UHGV virus genome: UHGV-0134350
Source of the DNA: a virus
DNA length: 31,759 nt
Direction: 5' to 3' (one strand)
Below the pieces are notes generated by a model, which had not been told where the DNA came from, ran no database searches, and worked only from the letters and a program-made list of their open reading frames with translations. The position numbers and the translations under genes were made by a program. Below are positions 17,873 to 26,157 of the stretch, one piece after another (position 1 is the stretch's first letter; every line of letters starts with the position of its first letter).

Positions 17873-19642
17873 ATGACCATTTCCACAGATACAACCTTGT
17901 TGCATGACCCGCGACGGCAGGCATCGCTGCTTTACTGGCAGGGTTTTTCCGTGCCACAGATTGCCGAAATGCTGCAGGTCAAGCGCCCGACCGTGCAGAG
18001 CTGGAAGCAGCGCGACGGCTGGGACGGCATCGCGCCGATTTCCCGCGTTGAAAGCAGCCTTGAGGCTAGGCTGATTCAGCTCATCGCCAAGCCGCAAAAG
18101 ACAGGGGGTGATTTCAAAGAGATTGACCTGCTCGGACGGCAGATTGAACGGTTGGCGCGAGTCAACCGCTACAGCCAGACCGGCAACGAAGCCGACCTTA
18201 ACCCCAACGTCGCCAACCGCAACAAAGGGGAGCGCAAAAAGCCGAAAAAGAATTTTTTCAGCGACGAGTCTATCGATAAACTAGAGGAATTATTTTTCGA
18301 CCAGTCTTTCGAGTACCAGTTGCAGTGGTACCGCGCAGGACTGGAGCACCGTATTCGTGACATTCTCAAATCCCGCCAGATTGGCGCGACATTCTATTTC
18401 TCCCGCGAGGCACTGCTGCGCGCACTCAAAACCGGCCATAACCAGATATTTTTATCAGCCAGTAAAACGCAGGCTTACGTGTTCCGCGAATACATCATCC
18501 AGTTTGCGCGACTGGTCGACGTTGACCTGACTGGCGACCCGATTGTCATCGGTAACAACGGCGCAAAACTGATTTTTCTCGGTACCAATTCCAACACCGC
18601 GCAGAGCCATAACGGCGATCTGTATGTCGATGAAATATTCTGGATCCCGAATTTTCAGAAACTGCGCAAAGTCGCCTCGGGCATGGCCTCGCAAAAGCAC
18701 CTGCGCTCGACCTATTTTTCGACACCTTCCACGCTGGCGCACGGCGCTTACCCCTTCTGGTCTGGCGAGCTGTTCAACAAGGGGCGCAGCCGGATTGCCG
18801 ACCGCATCGAAATCGACATCAGTCACAGCGCGCTCGCCGGTGGCCAGCTCTGCGACGATGGCCAGTGGCGGCAGATTGTCACCATTGAGGACGCCCTTGC
18901 GGGTGGCTGCACCCTGTTCGACCTCGACCAGCTCAAACGCGAAAACAGTGATGAGGACTTTAAGAACCTGTTTATGTGCGAGTTTGTCGACGATAAAGCG
19001 TCGGTATTCCCGTTCGAGGAGCTGCAGCGCTGCATGGTCGATGTGATGGAGGAATGGGAGGACTTTGCCCCGTTCGCCGACCATCCGTTCGGCTCTCGTC
19101 CTGTCTGGATTGGCTACGACCCGTCACACACCGGCGACAGTGCCGGGTGCGTCGTGCTCGCGCCGCCGGTGGTCTCTGGTGGCAAGTTCCGCATGCTGGA
19201 GCGCCACCAGTGGAAGGGCATGGATTTTGCAGCACAGGCAGAGGGCATCCGCAAGCTGACCGAGAAATACAACGTTGAATACATCGGCATTGACGCAACC
19301 GGCCTCGGTCTCGGCGTGTTCCAGCTGGTGCGCTCATTTTACCCGGCGGCACGCGGCATCCGTTACACACCTGAAATGAAAACCGCAATGGTACTCAAGG
19401 CGAAAGACACCATTCGCCGTGGCTGTCTGGAGTACGACGCCGGAGCAACCGACGTCACGCAGTCGTTTATGTCCATCCGCAAAACCATGACTAGCAGCGG
19501 GCGCAGCGCCACCTATGAGGCCAGCCGCACCGAGGAAGCCAGCCACGCCGATATCGCATGGGCGACCATGCACGCCCTGTTAAACGAACCGCTTTCTGCC
19601 GGTAGCGGCATGCAGCCTAAATCTATTCTGGAGTTCAACTAA
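17873..19642 (+). CDS. P: terminase ATPase (large) subunit gpP
   Basis: 589-aa ORF, P2 P-like, divergent from O. Confidence 0.9.
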   Translation: MTISTDTTLLHDPRRQASLLYWQGFSVPQIAEMLQVKRPTVQSWKQRDGWDGIAPISRVESSLEARLIQLIAKPQKTGGDFKEIDLLGRQIERLARVNRYSQTGNEADLNPNVANRNKGERKKPKKNFFSDESIDKLEELFFDQSFEYQLQWYRAGLEHRIRDILKSRQIGATFYFSREALLRALKTGHNQIFLSASKTQAYVFREYIIQFARLVDVDLTGDPIVIGNNGAKLIFLGTNSNTAQSHNGDLYVDEIFWIPNFQKLRKVASGMASQKHLRSTYFSTPSTLAHGAYPFWSGELFNKGRSRIADRIEIDISHSALAGGQLCDDGQWRQIVTIEDALAGGCTLFDLDQLKRENSDEDFKNLFMCEFVDDKASVFPFEELQRCMVDVMEEWEDFAPFADHPFGSRPVWIGYDPSHTGDSAGCVVLAPPVVSGGKFRMLERHQWKGMDFAAQAEGIRKLTEKYNVEYIGIDATGLGLGVFQLVRSFYPAARGIRYTPEMKTAMVLKAKDTIRRGCLEYDAGATDVTQSFMSIRKTMTSSGRSATYEASRTEEASHADIAWATMHALLNEPLSAGSGMQPKSILEFN

Positions 19643-19643
19643 A

Positions 19644-20690
19644 ATGGGTAAACAAAAATCCCGTAAAGCCAACGCACAAAAGGCCAGCAAACCACAACAA
19701 CTGACCGCCAGCGCACCGCCAAAAACGACAGCGTTCACCTTCGGCGAGCCGGTGCCGGTACTCGATAAGCGCGACATTCTGGATTACGTCGAATGCATCA
19801 GTAACGGCAAATGGTACGAGCCGCCGGTCAGCTTCTCAGGGCTGGCAAAGAGCCTGCGCTCTGCCGTGCATCACAGCTCGCCAATTTATGTTAAGCGTAA
19901 CGTGCTCGCGAGCACCTACATTCCGCACCCGTTGTTATCCCGTCAGGATTTCAGCCGCTTTGCGCTCGATTATCTGGTGTTCGGTAACGCCTTTCTTGAG
20001 CAGCGCCACAGCGTCACCGGCCAGTTAATCAAACTGCTGGCCTCGCCAGCCAAATACACCCGACGCGGAGTCGACGATTCGATTTTCTGGTTTGTGGAAA
20101 ACTTCACCCAGCCGCACGAGTTCGCGCCTGATACCGTGTTTCACCTGCTGGAGCCCGACATTAATCAGGAGATTTACGGTCTGCCGGAATATCTCAGCGC
20201 GCTTAATTCCGCTTGGCTGAATGAATCCGCGACGCTGTTCCGCCGCAAGTATTATCAGAACGGCGCGCACGCAGGCTACATCATGTATGTGACTGACCCG
20301 GCGCAAAGTGCGACCGACGTCGAATCGCTGCGCGAGGCGATGCGTAACTCGAAGGGACTCGGCAACTTTAAGAACCTGTTTTTCTACGCCCCCGGCGGAA
20401 AACCGGACGGCATCAAAATCGTGCCACTGAGCGAGGTCGCCACAAAGGATGACTTTTTCAACATTAAGAAAGCCAGCGCCGCCGACCTGATGGACGCGCA
20501 CCGCGTACCGTTCCAGCTCATGGGCGGCAAGCCCGAGAATATCGGTTCACTCGGTGACGTTGAGAAGGTGGCAAAGGTATTTGTGCGCAATGAGCTGTCG
20601 CCGCTACAGGACAGGTTCAGGGAGGTAAACGACTGGCTCGGCATGGAGGTCATCAGGTTCAAAGAGTACACCCTCGATAATCCGGAATAA
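19644..20690 (+). CDS. Q: portal protein gpQ
   Basis: 348-aa ORF, P2 Q-like, immediately downstream of P and reading toward cos. Confidence 0.9.
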   Translation: MGKQKSRKANAQKASKPQQLTASAPPKTTAFTFGEPVPVLDKRDILDYVECISNGKWYEPPVSFSGLAKSLRSAVHHSSPIYVKRNVLASTYIPHPLLSRQDFSRFALDYLVFGNAFLEQRHSVTGQLIKLLASPAKYTRRGVDDSIFWFVENFTQPHEFAPDTVFHLLEPDINQEIYGLPEYLSALNSAWLNESATLFRRKYYQNGAHAGYIMYVTDPAQSATDVESLREAMRNSKGLGNFKNLFFYAPGGKPDGIKIVPLSEVATKDDFFNIKKASAADLMDAHRVPFQLMGGKPENIGSLGDVEKVAKVFVRNELSPLQDRFREVNDWLGMEVIRFKEYTLDNPE

Positions 20691-20720
20691 TCACCACTCT
20701 AGCCGCCAGCATGGCGGCTC

Positions 20721-21446
20721 TCAATCGTGAGTGGATATTTGCGAAACAAACTCTTTAACTCCATCTCGTTCAAGTATTTTACTGTCATGGATATACTTTA
20801 CGATATCCCACTCGTAGTATGTACAAGCCATTGCAACTAAAGATATTATTTTTATGTCAGTTAAGTTAACTAATGTTTCATAATAATCTTCCCGTTCAAC
20901 CCCGCAATTATCTATCAACTTCACAATCAAATAAAAGCGACGCACCACTGAAAAAATGCAATCATTAGCATCCACTTCACTTAACCACTTTGTTATTACC
21001 TCTTTTTTTACCTTGGCTTTAACTAAAATTACAATATTATCTTCAAGATAAGTTACGGCTGCACCACTTGTAAATTCTTCGACCACCCCGTCAGTTTGTC
21101 CATCAATATCACCAACTTGAACACAAAACCTTTCAAAGTTAGAATCCTGACATTCAACCAAATGGAAAAATCTCACTTCAAATTTTTTATACTCTTCTAA
21201 AGATTCTTGCCTTTTTACTTCATCGATCAGGCTGGAATTAGCCTCCCTTTGAAGTTTTATTGAATTTATAAGGAGGTAAATTGTAATAAATGAAAGTATA
21301 GGGTTGACGACACCACCCAAATAATCACCAAACTGCGCCCAAACATCAGTCTTGCTGGATAAATGTCCGTTTACTCCGAAGTTGAAGTAATACAAGGCGC
21401 ACACAGCTACAATCACGCCAGCCGAAGACAGCAACACCTTTCTCAT
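20721..21446 (-). CDS. cargo protein with two N-terminal transmembrane helices (candidate membrane effector)
   Basis: 241-aa ORF in markedly AT-rich DNA; hydrophobic helices VLLSSAGVIVAVCALYYF and LGGVVNPILSFITIYLLI; ATG overlaps the stop of the upstream gene (ATGA). Confidence 0.75.
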   Translation of the reverse strand: MRKVLLSSAGVIVAVCALYYFNFGVNGHLSSKTDVWAQFGDYLGGVVNPILSFITIYLLINSIKLQREANSSLIDEVKRQESLEEYKKFEVRFFHLVECQDSNFERFCVQVGDIDGQTDGVVEEFTSGAAVTYLEDNIVILVKAKVKKEVITKWLSEVDANDCIFSVVRRFYLIVKLIDNCGVEREDYYETLVNLTDIKIISLVAMACTYYEWDIVKYIHDSKILERDGVKEFVSQISTHD

Positions 21447-22261
21447 ACAGTTTCAACCATACGGATTAGATATTTCACCACATCACCACTTTTTACTACA
21501 ACTTTGCTAACAGTAAGTTTTAGATATGTGTAGTTATCTTGCCTGCCATTATTATTGTGTAAATTTAATGAGACCAATCTTTTTTGAGCGGCGGGTATAG
21601 CCTTTAAAGGCATGTAAAAACCAAAGGCTACTGTATCATCTTCACCTTCGATAACTAACCTACCATTTCCAGTTCTCGCATTAAATCGAGTAATAACTGC
21701 GTTAATATTAACTTGACCGGGCTTTATTTTTGATTGTGTCAAGTTTGTAGCAGTCATTGTGTCTAACTTTGCTATTCTTTGTTTTCCAGCAGGTTTTTTA
21801 TAGTTAAGTTCAACATCAAAGTTTTTTTGAAGATTTATCCTATGCATCCTTACCAAAGGTTGTCTGATACGATCAATAAGTTCATCTTCAATTTCCTCAA
21901 GCTCCTCAATAATTCCTGCAGCTTTTGGAGATAGCTCCTTAGTTTCCAGATATAGAGATTCAGAAATAAAATACCCCATGACTTCCGAGAACACAGAACG
22001 GGTCATTTTTTTTAATTCGGCAGCTAATTCCGGCTCATTAACAATCAAGTCGAAGTTTTGACCATAAGAACTTTTAAAGCTTTGTTTGAGAACCGCTCGC
22101 GCAGGGTTAACATGAGTGCGGCGCTTAATAATTTTTTTTCTGAGTATTGCCTCTGCTAGTATGCATGTCACCTCAGCCGTTCCAGAGAGGGTATCAAGGC
22201 CATACTCCATATCAACTTCTTGATCACCACTTTTGATGACAACGTCATAGCTAACTTTCAT
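21443..22261 (-). CDS. cargo protein of unknown function (candidate sensor partner)
   Basis: 272 aa from the ATG (MKVSYDVV...) preceded by AAGGA; the track start is a GTG two codons upstream; AT-rich; no motif I recognise. Confidence 0.75.
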   Translation of the reverse strand: MKVSYDVVIKSGDQEVDMEYGLDTLSGTAEVTCILAEAILRKKIIKRRTHVNPARAVLKQSFKSSYGQNFDLIVNEPELAAELKKMTRSVFSEVMGYFISESLYLETKELSPKAAGIIEELEEIEDELIDRIRQPLVRMHRINLQKNFDVELNYKKPAGKQRIAKLDTMTATNLTQSKIKPGQVNINAVITRFNARTGNGRLVIEGEDDTVAFGFYMPLKAIPAAQKRLVSLNLHNNNGRQDNYTYLKLTVSKVVVKSGDVVKYLIRMVETV

Positions 22262-22369
22262 CGGCACATCCTTGATTTAGTAACCTTTGGTTATTATTTT
22301 TCATCTTCTACTCATTGACACCGATTTTTTACACCAAAAATATCAAATTGCAAGTGTGTGCTGCGCGCA

Positions 22370-22388
22370 ATGCTTTCCCCGCCACGCC
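22370..22388. other. cos site (19-nt cohesive end, 186/P2 type)
   Basis: Reverse complement of 22370-22388 is GGCGTGGCGGGGAAAGCAT, matching the P2 cohesive end GGCGAGGCGGGGAAAGCAC (recalled from memory) at 17 of 19 positions. Confidence 0.7.
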
Positions 22389-22545
22389 TGCCCGCTTTAC
22401 GGGGCGGTTTTAATGCAGTTGCATGAACACTCGGGATCCGCGCCAGCTCTGGCGGCGCACGGTCAGAACGGGCAACCCCTGCGAATGCAAAAGCATGCAC
22501 CTGTTGCATGCACGGCTAAAAACGGGGAAATCGCGGAAAAATGGC

Positions 22546-22573
22546 ATAAAAAACCGGCATTCACGGTGCCGGT
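22546..22573 (-). terminator. rho-independent terminator ending the leftward early/tum transcript before cos
   Basis: Stem ACCGGCA / TGCCGGT with 7-nt loop, followed on the minus strand by TTTTTTAT. Confidence 0.6.
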
Positions 22574-22902
22574 TTGGGGCTGGTTTTGTCGCGATTACTG
22601 GGCGTGTAATGCGCCAATAACACTATTGAGGCACATGCTGGCAAAAATCAGCAGAAAAATCGTCGTCCACCGATTTTCATAAACGAGAGATAACATATTG
22701 ATATAGATCCTTTTATTTGTGCATTCTAATGTGGTTTAACAGGTGTTTGATAACGACCGTAAGCTCATCTTTACTGGCTTGCTCGACCATTTTTTCGGTG
22801 TAGCTTTCCACCTCACGAGAACTCAGGTCGTTATTTGAAGCCATTACGGTCAGCTTTTTTGCCCAATCGGCAAACGGGTCTATCGATGAAAGGGAATTAT
22901 GC

Positions 22903-23334
22903 ATGTCCAAAAACCTCGAATTATTTAACCAGCAGACGGCGGAAATTTTTGCGGTGTTATGGGATAACTTCCCGGTGCCGCAGGTCATCACCTACGAAAA
23001 ATTTAACGCCGTGCTACCTGATGACTACTTTGACCAACTTAACTCACCGGAAATGAAAGCACTGAATCAGTTGCGTAGTGTGGTTGAGGGTACATTCACT
23101 TTTCTCAGTGAAAACGGCTACATCCAATATGAAACAGACCATCAGACTTATTTTCGGGATGTGCGCCTGACCGAGAAAGCACTCGCCGTGCTCAACAAAA
23201 AGCCCGAGGCACTCGGCGGTAGTGAAACGATGGGCGATAAGATTATCAGTGCGGTGAAAGACGGGACACCCGGAGTTATTGCAGGTGCGGTGACAAACCT
23301 GCTTTCACTCGGTGTCAATCTGGTAACCAACTAA
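22903..23334 (+). CDS. hypothetical protein with hydrophobic Gly-rich C-terminal tail
   Basis: 143-aa ORF with AGGGA 7 nt upstream of the ATG; convergent with the dinI-like gene; sits where old/tin lie in P2. Confidence 0.55.
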   Translation: MSKNLELFNQQTAEIFAVLWDNFPVPQVITYEKFNAVLPDDYFDQLNSPEMKALNQLRSVVEGTFTFLSENGYIQYETDHQTYFRDVRLTEKALAVLNKKPEALGGSETMGDKIISAVKDGTPGVIAGAVTNLLSLGVNLVTN

Positions 23335-23401
23335 CGCCTCGCGTGGCTCGTTGTTCAACCCCGTCAGCACTGAAAGCAAGTTTCAGCACCGGCGGCGTTT
23401 G

Positions 23402-23635
23402 TTAATGCAGCCAGCTATCGTCCTCCCATACCTGCTGCATGATTTCCATTACTCGTTTTTTATCTTCGTCCAGTTTCAAACCGCTTAGTTCAACGCCATT
23501 AGCGGAGCCCTTGCGAATTCGGATAGCAGTCTTTGGGTAAATAGGTTGAAGATTGCGGTACAGTTCAGCCTCAAGTGCATCCAATGTTGCCTGACTAATT
23601 TTTTGCTCTTTATCCAACGTGATATTGATTCTCAT
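23402..23635 (-). CDS. dinI: DinI-family protein (Tum C-terminal-like)
   Basis: 77-aa ORF MRINITLDK...DALEAEL...EDKKRVMEIMQQVWEDDSW aligns along its length with E. coli DinI. Confidence 0.85.
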   Translation of the reverse strand: MRINITLDKEQKISQATLDALEAELYRNLQPIYPKTAIRIRKGSANGVELSGLKLDEDKKRVMEIMQQVWEDDSWLH

Positions 23636-23638
23636 AAT

Positions 23639-23821
23639 CTAATCAGCCTTATAAAAATTATCATCTTCGGTTTCGTTATTTTCGCTGTTTGCTAGGTCTG
23701 CAATGAGAGTGAGCGCGAGCTTTAAGTCTGATGGCTTGCAGTTTGCAATCAGAGATACCTCGGCAATAAATTGCACACAAGCCCACTTTTGCTGCGTTCG
23801 GCTGAAATGTTCGCCAACCAT
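23639..23821 (-). CDS. small protein, possible Tum N-terminal (antirepressor) part
   Basis: 60-aa ORF with GGAGG RBS, downstream of the LexA box; in frame with the dinI-like ORF and separated from it by a single TAG. Confidence 0.5.
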   Translation of the reverse strand: MVGEHFSRTQQKWACVQFIAEVSLIANCKPSDLKLALTLIADLANSENNETEDDNFYKAD

Positions 23822-23840
23822 GAAATCCCTCCCATAGGGT

Positions 23841-23860
23841 TACTGTATGTTTATACAGTA
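23841..23860. promoter_or_regulatory. LexA (SOS) box
   Basis: TACTGTATGTTTATACAGTA fits CTGT-N8-ACAG and lies about 20 bp upstream of the 60-aa ORF. Confidence 0.75.
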
Positions 23861-23934
23861 GCACGTATTGGCAAAAGATGGGAAGAAAAAAAACGAATAG
23901 AGCGATTGCTGTATGTGCATGATATGGATATGAA

Positions 23935-26157
23935 TTACTCATGTATTGGTTTTGATTCTTCAGCCATCGCCGCAACACGATTAAGGATTTTCCGAGCTTT
24001 AGCCTCATGCGATGGTGCTGCGGAAAATATTTCTCCTTTGGCCGTTCCGCGTAGCCATTTACCATCAAAACAACTTTTACCACCGGCCATCAGGTGCAGG
24101 GCTTCGCCCCGGCTGATATTAATGCCGGTTGTCAGATGTATCTCATCGATAGTTTTAGCTATAGCTGCGTTTTGCTCATCCGTTCCGTGGATGAATTTTC
24201 GCCGTGCTGCTGGCTTTTGCTTCCTGAGTCGGTTGGTCAATTCTCGTCTTTCACGCCGACTCAGTGGTTTTGTTAAATCCAGTATCGGTGGATCGCTTTC
24301 GCTTCCCGTACAGTTATTGACAGAACTCCGAGGGACGGCTTTGCCGTCCTGAAGGTCAACGGCCAAATCAACAGCACGCTTCGGAACAATCTTCCACTGA
24401 GTGAGCCGGGTTAAAATCGGGCTTCCTGCACCTATGGAGGAATCGTAGACCCCCTTAATACATACCGTTTCCTCACCGTACTGATTAAGCTCGGTACGCG
24501 GTTCATACAGTGTGCGCACCTGTAAATCATCGCGACGGACAAACGGCCCACCCTGAGCATTAACATAACCAGCCCAGTCACCAGCGTCGGCGGCATCATG
24601 GACGGCGGCAAACTCAACGCTCAGACCGTGCGCGGTTTCGGTATCAGCGAGGCGACGCAACTCACGGTAAACCGTCACCGGCGCACCACCAATAAACTGA
24701 AACTGACGGATGTGCCAGCGCGCAGCCCATGCTGAAACGGCGGGGGCTGTCTCTTTCAGCAGCTCACCGCTTTCATCATCGGTTTCACCATCGAGAGCAT
24801 AACCGTCGATATTTTTTGAAATGTATTTAGCAACATAGCCGGTTGCGCTGCCTTTCTCCGGGTCAATGGACTCCGCGTGGAAACGTGCTTTTTGGGATTT
24901 ATCGCTTTTCAGTTCGTGGCGGTCTTCTTTCCATGCGTATTTACGGACGATGGAGCGAACATATTCAACATCTTCCGGCAGCATGAACATCAGCATGTGC
25001 CAGTGTGGAGTGCCGTCGTGATGGGGCTCGGCGACACGAATACCGAAAATACGGACATCTTCCCGATGTAGTTTGGCACGGATACGCGCCCAGATACCGG
25101 TTAGATAGTTTTGCGTGTCAGCCGGGCTGGCACCGCTCCATTTGCTGTTACGGTAACCGGCTTTAGTCGTGGCGTGATATTTTGACGGCGCGGTTAGAGT
25201 GTAAAACTCACCGACATAACCGAGCTCATTACAGATGTTTTCAAACCCACGAATGCGGGTCATGAGCTCACAGCGGCGAATCGCAGGGTTAGCAACTGAG
25301 CCATCATATTTTTCAATTAGGCTGATACGGTTGCCGTCTTCGTCTTCGAGATCCAGACCTTTGAGAAATTCACGAGTGCGGCGCTTTTGTTCACGCCAGT
25401 CAGTCACGCAGTTTTTACTCGCGTAAGTGTTTTTTTTCTTACTGACGTTGCCGACTGCAATTTGCAGGTGTTCGCGCCACGTAGCTGCTACACGGCGCAA
25501 ACGACCGCGCCACCACCCATCGTTAAACATTTTGGCGATAGCCGGTGCGATTTCATCCGCACCGACATATTTTTTTTCAACCCGCTCCCAATGTGGTGGG
25601 ATAACGTTGAATTGGAGGGAAATAAAGCCAGCACGAATATACCAGGTGTACAGCGTTTTAAGCTCGCCGAATCCGTGGTCATTAATGTTGGCAAGTTCAC
25701 CACGAATGAAATTAGCAATATCAGCGGCCAACAGGTCAACATCAGCGCGCGACATGTCCGGGAGACGGTTATATCGGGCGACCATATTAACCATGCGTGA
25801 CGACAGATATTGCATTTGCTGAGTATCAAAATGACTTCCAAAAACAGCGGTTGATACCTTGCTGTTGATACCAGCGCATTCGTATTTTTTTGCGACCAGT
25901 TCAAGACGCGGCAATGCCTTTTTGCAGAAGCTGATTAAAAATGCATTGGCTCGTTGACTACCCTGATTTTGTTCCAGCACCGCAGCAGTGCGATAAACAT
26001 CTAACCGCACGCAGTCGGGCTGGAGAGAAAGCACCTTTTTTGCATGCAGCAAAGCCGCGAACATACGGTCGCGGCGATGCTGTTGCTCATAAGTAAGGTA
26101 TGGGCTGGAGATTGCCGACCGTGGGACGTTCCACGGATAAGCGAATTGAACAGCCAA
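23935..26157 (-). CDS. A: replication initiation endonuclease gpA (rolling-circle initiator)
   Basis: 740-aa ORF, P2 A-like, contains the active-site region YVAKYISK. Confidence 0.9.
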   Translation of the reverse strand: MAVQFAYPWNVPRSAISSPYLTYEQQHRRDRMFAALLHAKKVLSLQPDCVRLDVYRTAAVLEQNQGSQRANAFLISFCKKALPRLELVAKKYECAGINSKVSTAVFGSHFDTQQMQYLSSRMVNMVARYNRLPDMSRADVDLLAADIANFIRGELANINDHGFGELKTLYTWYIRAGFISLQFNVIPPHWERVEKKYVGADEIAPAIAKMFNDGWWRGRLRRVAATWREHLQIAVGNVSKKKNTYASKNCVTDWREQKRRTREFLKGLDLEDEDGNRISLIEKYDGSVANPAIRRCELMTRIRGFENICNELGYVGEFYTLTAPSKYHATTKAGYRNSKWSGASPADTQNYLTGIWARIRAKLHREDVRIFGIRVAEPHHDGTPHWHMLMFMLPEDVEYVRSIVRKYAWKEDRHELKSDKSQKARFHAESIDPEKGSATGYVAKYISKNIDGYALDGETDDESGELLKETAPAVSAWAARWHIRQFQFIGGAPVTVYRELRRLADTETAHGLSVEFAAVHDAADAGDWAGYVNAQGGPFVRRDDLQVRTLYEPRTELNQYGEETVCIKGVYDSSIGAGSPILTRLTQWKIVPKRAVDLAVDLQDGKAVPRSSVNNCTGSESDPPILDLTKPLSRRERRELTNRLRKQKPAARRKFIHGTDEQNAAIAKTIDEIHLTTGINISRGEALHLMAGGKSCFDGKWLRGTAKGEIFSAAPSHEAKARKILNRVAAMAEESKPIHE

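Follow-up and report, generated by a model that had tools for sequence, protein, structure and literature searches.

A head-to-head gene pair with overlapping start codons in the cos-proximal slot of P2-family prophages, a candidate defence and self-immunity cassette

The stretch of DNA analysed here (UHGV virus genome UHGV-0134350, 31,759 nucleotides, hereafter called the window) belongs, among the prophages of the P2 family, to the 186/PSP3 type. Between its portal gene Q and its replication gene A lie two divergent genes of 143 and 63 codons, which we call big and small and whose family is unnamed in the literature and databases that were searched (Table 1). As a first-pass annotation of the same sequence had proposed, the 143-codon reading frame on the plus strand is convergent with the early genes, dinI, tum and A being all located on the minus strand; small, for its part, is co-directional with tum, dinI and A. 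The perfect LexA box found upstream of tum indicates that tum and dinI constitute a 186-like SOS-inducible unit. On the other side of the pair, the sequence ATGCTTTCCCCGCCACGCC, which we take to be the cos sequence of 186, is separated from the stop codon of small by 325 bp, making the cassette cos-proximal, and the termini of the Midge and FSL SP-004 phage genomes map at about 22380-22400. In P2, old and tin are carried next to cos in the interval from gpA to gpQ, a documented anti-phage hotspot (PMC9122126). Since big is placed between gpA and gpQ beside cos, it therefore occupies the P2 old/tin slot, and its initial description as accessory cargo of a P2-family prophage, inserted between A and cos, is sustained.

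Table 1. Genes and sequence elements around the pair (positions counted from the first nucleotide of the window)
Feature	Position	Strand	Remarks
Terminase gene P	17873-19642	+	
Portal gene Q	19644-20690	+	
Cargo pair, 241 aa and 274 aa	20721-22267	-	After portal gene Q; on the Q side of cos
cos, ATGCTTTCCCCGCCACGCC	22370-22388		186-type cohesive ends, from sequence; within a non-coding stretch
Conserved non-coding block, ATAACATATTGATATAGATCCTT	22690-22712		Just past the stop codon of small
small	22713-22904	-	63 aa; predicted three-helix bundle; PHROG 2454
Shine-Dalgarno-like AAGGGA of big	22890-22895	+	Inside codons 4-5 of small; 9 nt before the ATG
big	22903-23334	+	143 aa, ATG to TAA; PHROG 2266
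Shine-Dalgarno GAGGT of small	22913-22917	-	Inside codons 4-5 of big; 8 nt before the ATG
dinI	23402-23635	-	DinI Pfam match, E 7e-24
tum	23639-23821	-	
LexA box, CTGTATGTTTATACAG	23843-23858	-	Perfect match; within TACTGTATAAACATACAGTA; directly upstream of tum
Replication gene A	23935-26157	-	

The slot also accommodates other cargo. In the window, this is a pair of genes coding for proteins of 241 and 274 aa and overlapping by 4 nt. The 241-aa protein (PHROG 8999) possesses an N-terminal hydrophobic segment and shows a weak ZorB/MotB-like match, and the 274-aa protein (PHROG 13337) has a sub-threshold match to DUF7946/DUF7947. A PADLOC scan matched no system to these two genes, which may represent another uncharacterised system of the hotspot; versions that are 54-57% identical are carried by two further loci (L013 and L014).

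The big and small genes begin back-to-back. Within the tetranucleotide CATG at 22902-22905, the plus-strand ATG occupies 22903-22905 and the minus-strand ATG is the complement of 22902-22904, resulting in an overlap of 2 nt. This overlap, inside the palindrome ATGCAT (22899-22904), had already been recognised in the first-pass annotation, which took it as a sign that only one of the two reading frames was likely to be real. It is now clear that both are. The big gene has 72 close homologues in Enterobacteriaceae, every one of them labelled 'hypothetical', matches PHROG 2266 with an E-value of 1e-60 and is under purifying selection (dN/dS of 0.079 over 699 sequence pairs). The small gene is intact in 53 out of 53 related loci, drawn from genomes, viral contigs and annotated phages, with a length of 63-64 codons (86 in one locus) and a dN/dS of 0.153. 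It matches PHROG 2454 (E 1e-39), contains the invariant motif NNDLSSREV...LLNHIRM and has 58 homologues, again all labelled 'hypothetical'; in many genomes, it is annotated by GenBank and PGAP. In all 53 close loci, the CATG start overlap (an offset of +1) is invariant. The unit of function is a conserved head-to-head pair and not, as initially assumed, a single gene.

The initiation regions of the two genes are correspondingly intertwined, the ribosome-binding site of each being located within the first codons of the other (Table 1). The plus-strand gene had been credited with the better site; the GAGGT of small is, in fact, at least equal to the AAGG(GA) of big, and both are invariant. Indeed, across 45 sequences, the core of each Shine-Dalgarno sequence is unchanged, at 22893-22895 for big and at 22914-22917 (CCTC) for small. 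Synonymous diversity is zero in codons 2-4 of small and likewise zero at the CTC codon of Leu5 in big, despite its six-fold degeneracy. More broadly, synonymous diversity in big amounts to 0.20-0.27 in the first ~20 codons versus 0.42-0.51 in the last 60. Such low diversity at the start of both genes is what is expected of a dual-use sequence.

The 53 related loci all have the pair between Q and A, and their A proteins are 35-99% identical to the one of the window. The pair is present in many Salmonella and Klebsiella and is missing from PSP3, SEN1 and SW9. Among complete E. coli genomes, 94 out of 5426 (about 1.7%) possess the locus, in single copy and always on the chromosome. The body of big is kept in 79 of these 94 genomes and lost in about 15, which have all kept small. 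The opposite situation, big without small, did not occur in any of the 53 related loci, nor in the window or in one additional E. coli genome. The genomes apparently devoid of small turned out to contain a diverged and unannotated allele having the same start overlap. Within the close subfamily, big was thus always accompanied by small, while small also occurs where big has been lost. In E. coli FDAARGOS_1253 (L142, 2501-2860), a natural internal deletion of big has spared its initial ~57 nt together with the 3' end, the small gene being intact, and a P2-like contig (L055, 3373-3623) contains, beside dinI, a fragment resembling the C-terminal part of big (38% identity, residues ~57-140), which is probably a decayed copy.

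Regarding the surroundings of the pair, the distance from the stop codon of Q to that of small is about 500-520 bp in most loci, namely those that are cargo-free. In some others, genes for a Fic protein, a retron reverse transcriptase or the 241/274-aa pair have been inserted on either side of the pair. Between the pair and dinI/A, for instance, we found a retron-type reverse transcriptase with an XRE regulator in Klebsiella phage ST147-VIM1phi7.1 (L003) and a Fic-family protein in FSL SP-004 (L002). The pair therefore borders, and does not itself constitute, the region where the hotspot varies most.

Among close relatives, the small protein exists in two main allelic types, with an identity of about 55-65% between them and most of the differences in the N-terminal half. 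These alleles are shuffled with respect to big, as illustrated by loci in which big is 94% and small 64% identical to the window proteins and others in which the values are 89% and 92%. Such shuffling implies that recombination has occurred at the start-codon junction or close to it.

Predictions made with AF2 assign to the small protein three helices (residues 10-23, 29-42 and 45-62; pLDDT 78), with no informative structural neighbour. For the big protein, the predicted fold consists, from the N-terminus, of a winged-helix domain (about residues 1-100) and two C-terminal helices (110-120 and 123-142), with a pLDDT of 88.8 and a pTM of 0.82, high confidence being reached in one of five models only. 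The overall topology and the LTxKG motif in the wing are as in winged-helix regulators of the MarR/Rrf2 type. The protein is acidic (pI 4.6), a property shared throughout PHROG 2266 (pI 4.3-6.8, median 4.8-5.0). Scans of Pfam, NCBIfam and PADLOC with big, small and 46 distant members gave no significant family; sequence-profile searches of the PDB returned matches only at E>0.2, and a Foldseek comparison with viral structures gave none below E 0.09. A literature search on the PHROG identifier and on start-overlapping divergent phage genes was equally without result. The homology search suggested in the first-pass annotation thus connected big to no morphogenetic or known regulatory protein.

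The family extends far beyond the close relatives of the window. A profile of big searched against 1.84 billion cluster representatives retrieved 775 of them at E<1e-3, with a length of about 125-160 aa and end-to-end matches, the distant members being likewise assigned to PHROG 2266, and 68 further loci were recovered with a degenerate DNA pattern for LTAKGLEVLK. Every locus of the big family that was inspected lies in a phage context. Distant members were found in a Mu-like phage after the transposition genes, in another P2-like phage beside cos, and between baseplate gene V and a tail-completion gene, as well as, together with a small gene, between TerL and portal, between tail tube and tape measure, and between Mu G and scaffold. 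The pair recurs in P2-like, Mu-like and lambda-like phages.

In these distant phages, a divergent ATG-initiated reading frame of 60-100 aa accompanies 42 out of 74 unique members versus 21 out of 543 control genes (Fisher p 3e-29). The start offsets include 29 cases at +1 (the CATG arrangement, 29 of 71 unique distant members), seven at -5 and three at -1. The distant partners are homologous to one another and belong to a single family, PHROG 25421 (pairwise E-values from 1e-5 to 1e-20); the similarity of this family to small is marginal (hhalign P 0.024; hmmsearch E 0.03 with a 36-sequence set). No partner was detected in 32 of 71 distant members (about 40%), and it is also missing from a 45%-identical P2-like relative. 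Regarding orientation, as called by ORF heuristics and not from annotation, the gene located past the 3' end of big is convergent with it in 34 out of 37 distant cases, frequently with only 3-6 nt from stop to stop, and both flanking genes lie on the strand of small in 22 of the 34 loci that have a partner versus 7 of the 30 that have none (p 0.0009). Taken together, the orientation and partner data reveal a recurrent design in which an antisense gene interrupts a lytic operon and, directly after it, a small gene returns to the direction of the operon.

As for the signals that could drive these genes, consensus scans of the window and of three distant loci gave no near-consensus sigma-70 promoter for either gene. 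Manual inspection of the conserved block just past the end of small and of a minus-strand AATAAT motif within big disclosed no convincing pair of -35 and -10 elements. This block, in which most positions are at least 90% conserved across 45 sequences, may correspond to a promoter of big, to the 3' terminus of the transcript of small or to a boundary of recombination; neither a promoter nor a terminator could be assigned within it. An Rfam search of positions 20600-24000 returned no RNA family. On the minus strand, no intrinsic terminator was called from the stop codon of dinI to that of big, and SOS-driven read-through from the LexA-controlled tum-dinI unit into small is plausible. A weak terminator-like hairpin does occur on this strand within big (CCGAGTGCCTCGG then GCTTTTTGTT, 23216-23204), and it could limit or stop antisense read-through; sites of this kind are no commoner than in shuffled sequence.

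Considering gene layout and comparison with characterised prophage loci, we propose that big and small form a prophage accessory cassette laid out as a 'noncontiguous operon', in which big would be a protein-binding defence effector expressed in the lysogen and small its lytic-phase antidote. This is the reading that we favour, tentatively, as we would place it just short of probable. In the lysogen, the big protein would be made and would bind either one of the proteins of an infecting phage or a factor of the host on which this phage depends, acting as an anti-phage defence or exclusion effector. Upon induction, transcription of the small strand, presumably by read-through from the LexA-controlled tum-dinI unit or from the A operon, would cross big in antisense. 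Because the Shine-Dalgarno sequence of each gene sits in the first codons of the other, the same transcript would cover the ribosome-binding site of big, and antisense read-through would add silencing at the RNA level. [quoted passage not shown]

The main rival to a defence gene with its antidote is a MarR/Rrf2-like dimeric winged-helix regulator, big controlling small, neighbouring cargo or host genes. Its N- and C-terminal helices would then provide the dimer interface, and small would be a regulated target or a co-regulator. Several properties of the family render such a function rather unlikely. Indeed, no helix-turn-helix model of Pfam or NCBIfam is matched, the whole family is acidic, the putative recognition helix and wing contain no conserved basic residue, and the helix-2 region is degenerate and of variable length. 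Furthermore, since the start codons overlap, there is no intergenic operator region, and antisense insertion in lytic operons is a pattern that has been reported for defence/counter-defence pairs.

One may also envisage that the two proteins serve lysogenic conversion or host takeover, acting jointly or at distinct stages and having no link with self-immunity. A moron-like distribution and a winged helix of the protein-binding type fit many functions, and the solitary family member of a Mu-like phage lies after the transposase genes, in the early region where host-takeover genes cluster. That PADLOC gave no match, and that an annotation note for Midge cites an HHpred similarity to T7 gp5.5/5.7, are in line with this explanation as well. 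We regard it as unlikely.

A toxin-antitoxin or abortive-infection system, in which the C-terminal helix of big would attack the membrane and small, the antisense transcript or both would be the antidote, appears improbable. The translation-initiation regions of big and small are mutually antisense in a type-I-like manner, as those of symE/symR- and tisB/istR-type loci are, remnants that retain only the antidote exist, and, among the enterobacterial members, the C-terminal helix carries no charge. It had indeed been described as a Gly-zipper membrane anchor. However, residues 124-142 reach a best 19-residue Kyte-Doolittle mean of 1.56, under the usual cut-off of 1.6, and a summed insertion energy of about +4.4 kcal/mol on the Hessa scale, which is unfavourable (scale values after the published tables), and the equivalent helix, charged in most of the family, is amphipathic in distant homologues, with a median of three charged residues and a Kyte-Doolittle mean of 0.88. 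A membrane anchor is therefore unsupported. The pTM of the model suggests instead that the helix packs on the domain of big. In addition, big and small are not co-transcribed as type II genes are, the product of big is, at 143 aa and with a predicted fold, unlike type I toxins, and an antidote needed continuously would not sit behind a lytic promoter. The original proposal of a single membrane-anchored exclusion protein faced by a chance reading frame, right as to position and orientation, is very improbable given the missing support for the anchor and a small gene that is conserved, under selection, annotated and recurrent in distant phages.

If big and small are a defence gene and its antidote, an abundant new protein family joins the small set of prophage defences that come with their own antidote, and the 'noncontiguous operon', namely an antisense gene within a lytic operon, paired head-to-head with a small gene, provides a search signature for others. 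More generally, it is possible, though we put it forward with some reserve, that PHROG 2266 together with PHROG 2454 or PHROG 25421 represents widespread and so far unrecognised prophage defence/self-immunity pairs, in which the CATG antisense arrangement would serve as a toggle between lysogeny and lysis. With such an overlap, the initiation regions are exact antisense of one another, and lytic transcription would thus silence the defence gene and encode the antidote together. There are also consequences for annotation, as discarding one of two divergent reading frames with overlapping starts loses half of the system and gene callers miss or mis-start small in some genomes. In E. coli WP4-S17-ESBL-08 (L143, 1241-1435), for example, an intact 64-aa small gene was left unannotated by PGAP, and elsewhere the N-termini of both proteins have been extended, to 162 aa for big and 84-92 aa for small.

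How big and small relate to known systems can be considered class by class. Membership of the MarR class was rejected in the absence of an HMM match and of a basic DNA-binding surface, big differing from MarR/Rrf2-type regulators in its acidity and in DNA-contact residues that are not conserved. Toxin-antitoxin systems were likewise set aside, as the genes are divergent and not co-transcribed and big codes for a folded, acidic protein of 143 aa; the one feature recalling those of type I is that the initiation regions overlap in antisense. With old and tin of P2, the pair shares an identical slot between gpA and gpQ beside cos and a presence that varies among related phages. The proteins are unrelated, however, and no built-in antidote gene is known for old or tin. 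In contrast to them, the pair also keeps a constant distance to cos, other cargo being inserted on one side of it or the other.

Closer parallels are offered by prophage defences that are expressed during lysogeny and for which self-immunity is switched on at induction, a concept shared by BstA/aba (PMC8585504) and TerI/anti-TerI. In the former, aba is a DNA element and not a protein (PMC8585504). In the latter, described with anti-TerI1,2 in the Listeria phage phi10403S, the defence gene lies opposite the lytic operon (bioRxiv 10.1101/2025.02.27.640495); the proteins are different from big and small, and terI completely overlaps a gene of the opposite strand. In the Tab/anti-Tab system of Pseudomonas phage JBD26, the antidote, which binds the defence protein, is a product of the late operon (PMC10884400). 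As we propose for big, the defence gene is expressed from the prophage; it is located opposite the late operon, much as big is opposite lytic genes, and in JBD26 it cannot be kept without its antidote. Unlike big and small, tab and atab code for 83 aa each and are convergent, with a 47-nt overlap at their 3' ends, instead of being head-to-head, and hmmsearch detected no homology of big and small to JBD26 gp31/gp30 (0.9 bits or lower).

A further parallel is Tai/Ati of phi80 (tail assembly inhibition and its counter-defence), in which taiEcA is antisense within the Q-dependent late operon and AtiEcA, produced in the lytic cycle only, neutralises Tai (PMC11364771). In phi80, taiEcA (-) and atiEcA (+) are head-to-head with a 5' overlap of 20 nt, compared with 2 nt for big and small. 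Membership of the Tai or Tab families was rejected for want of sequence homology by hmmsearch and hhalign, the profiles of big and small giving about 0 bits and an hhalign probability of 1% against TaiEcA/AtiEcA, and TaiEcA is a 204-aa protein in which a Pfam scan matched neither a winged helix nor any other family. Beyond these differences, the two systems have the same architecture, with a defence gene, or a candidate one, placed antisense in a lytic operon and a small head-to-head gene, the counter-defence in Tai/Ati, co-directional with the operon. In Proteobacterial prophages, both are found at moron sites and immunity hotspots, and in both the partner is recognisable in some members only. 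This layout has been established experimentally for prophage defences with self-immunity, and it is therefore a lysogenic defence gene paired with a lytic antidote that we favour for big and small.
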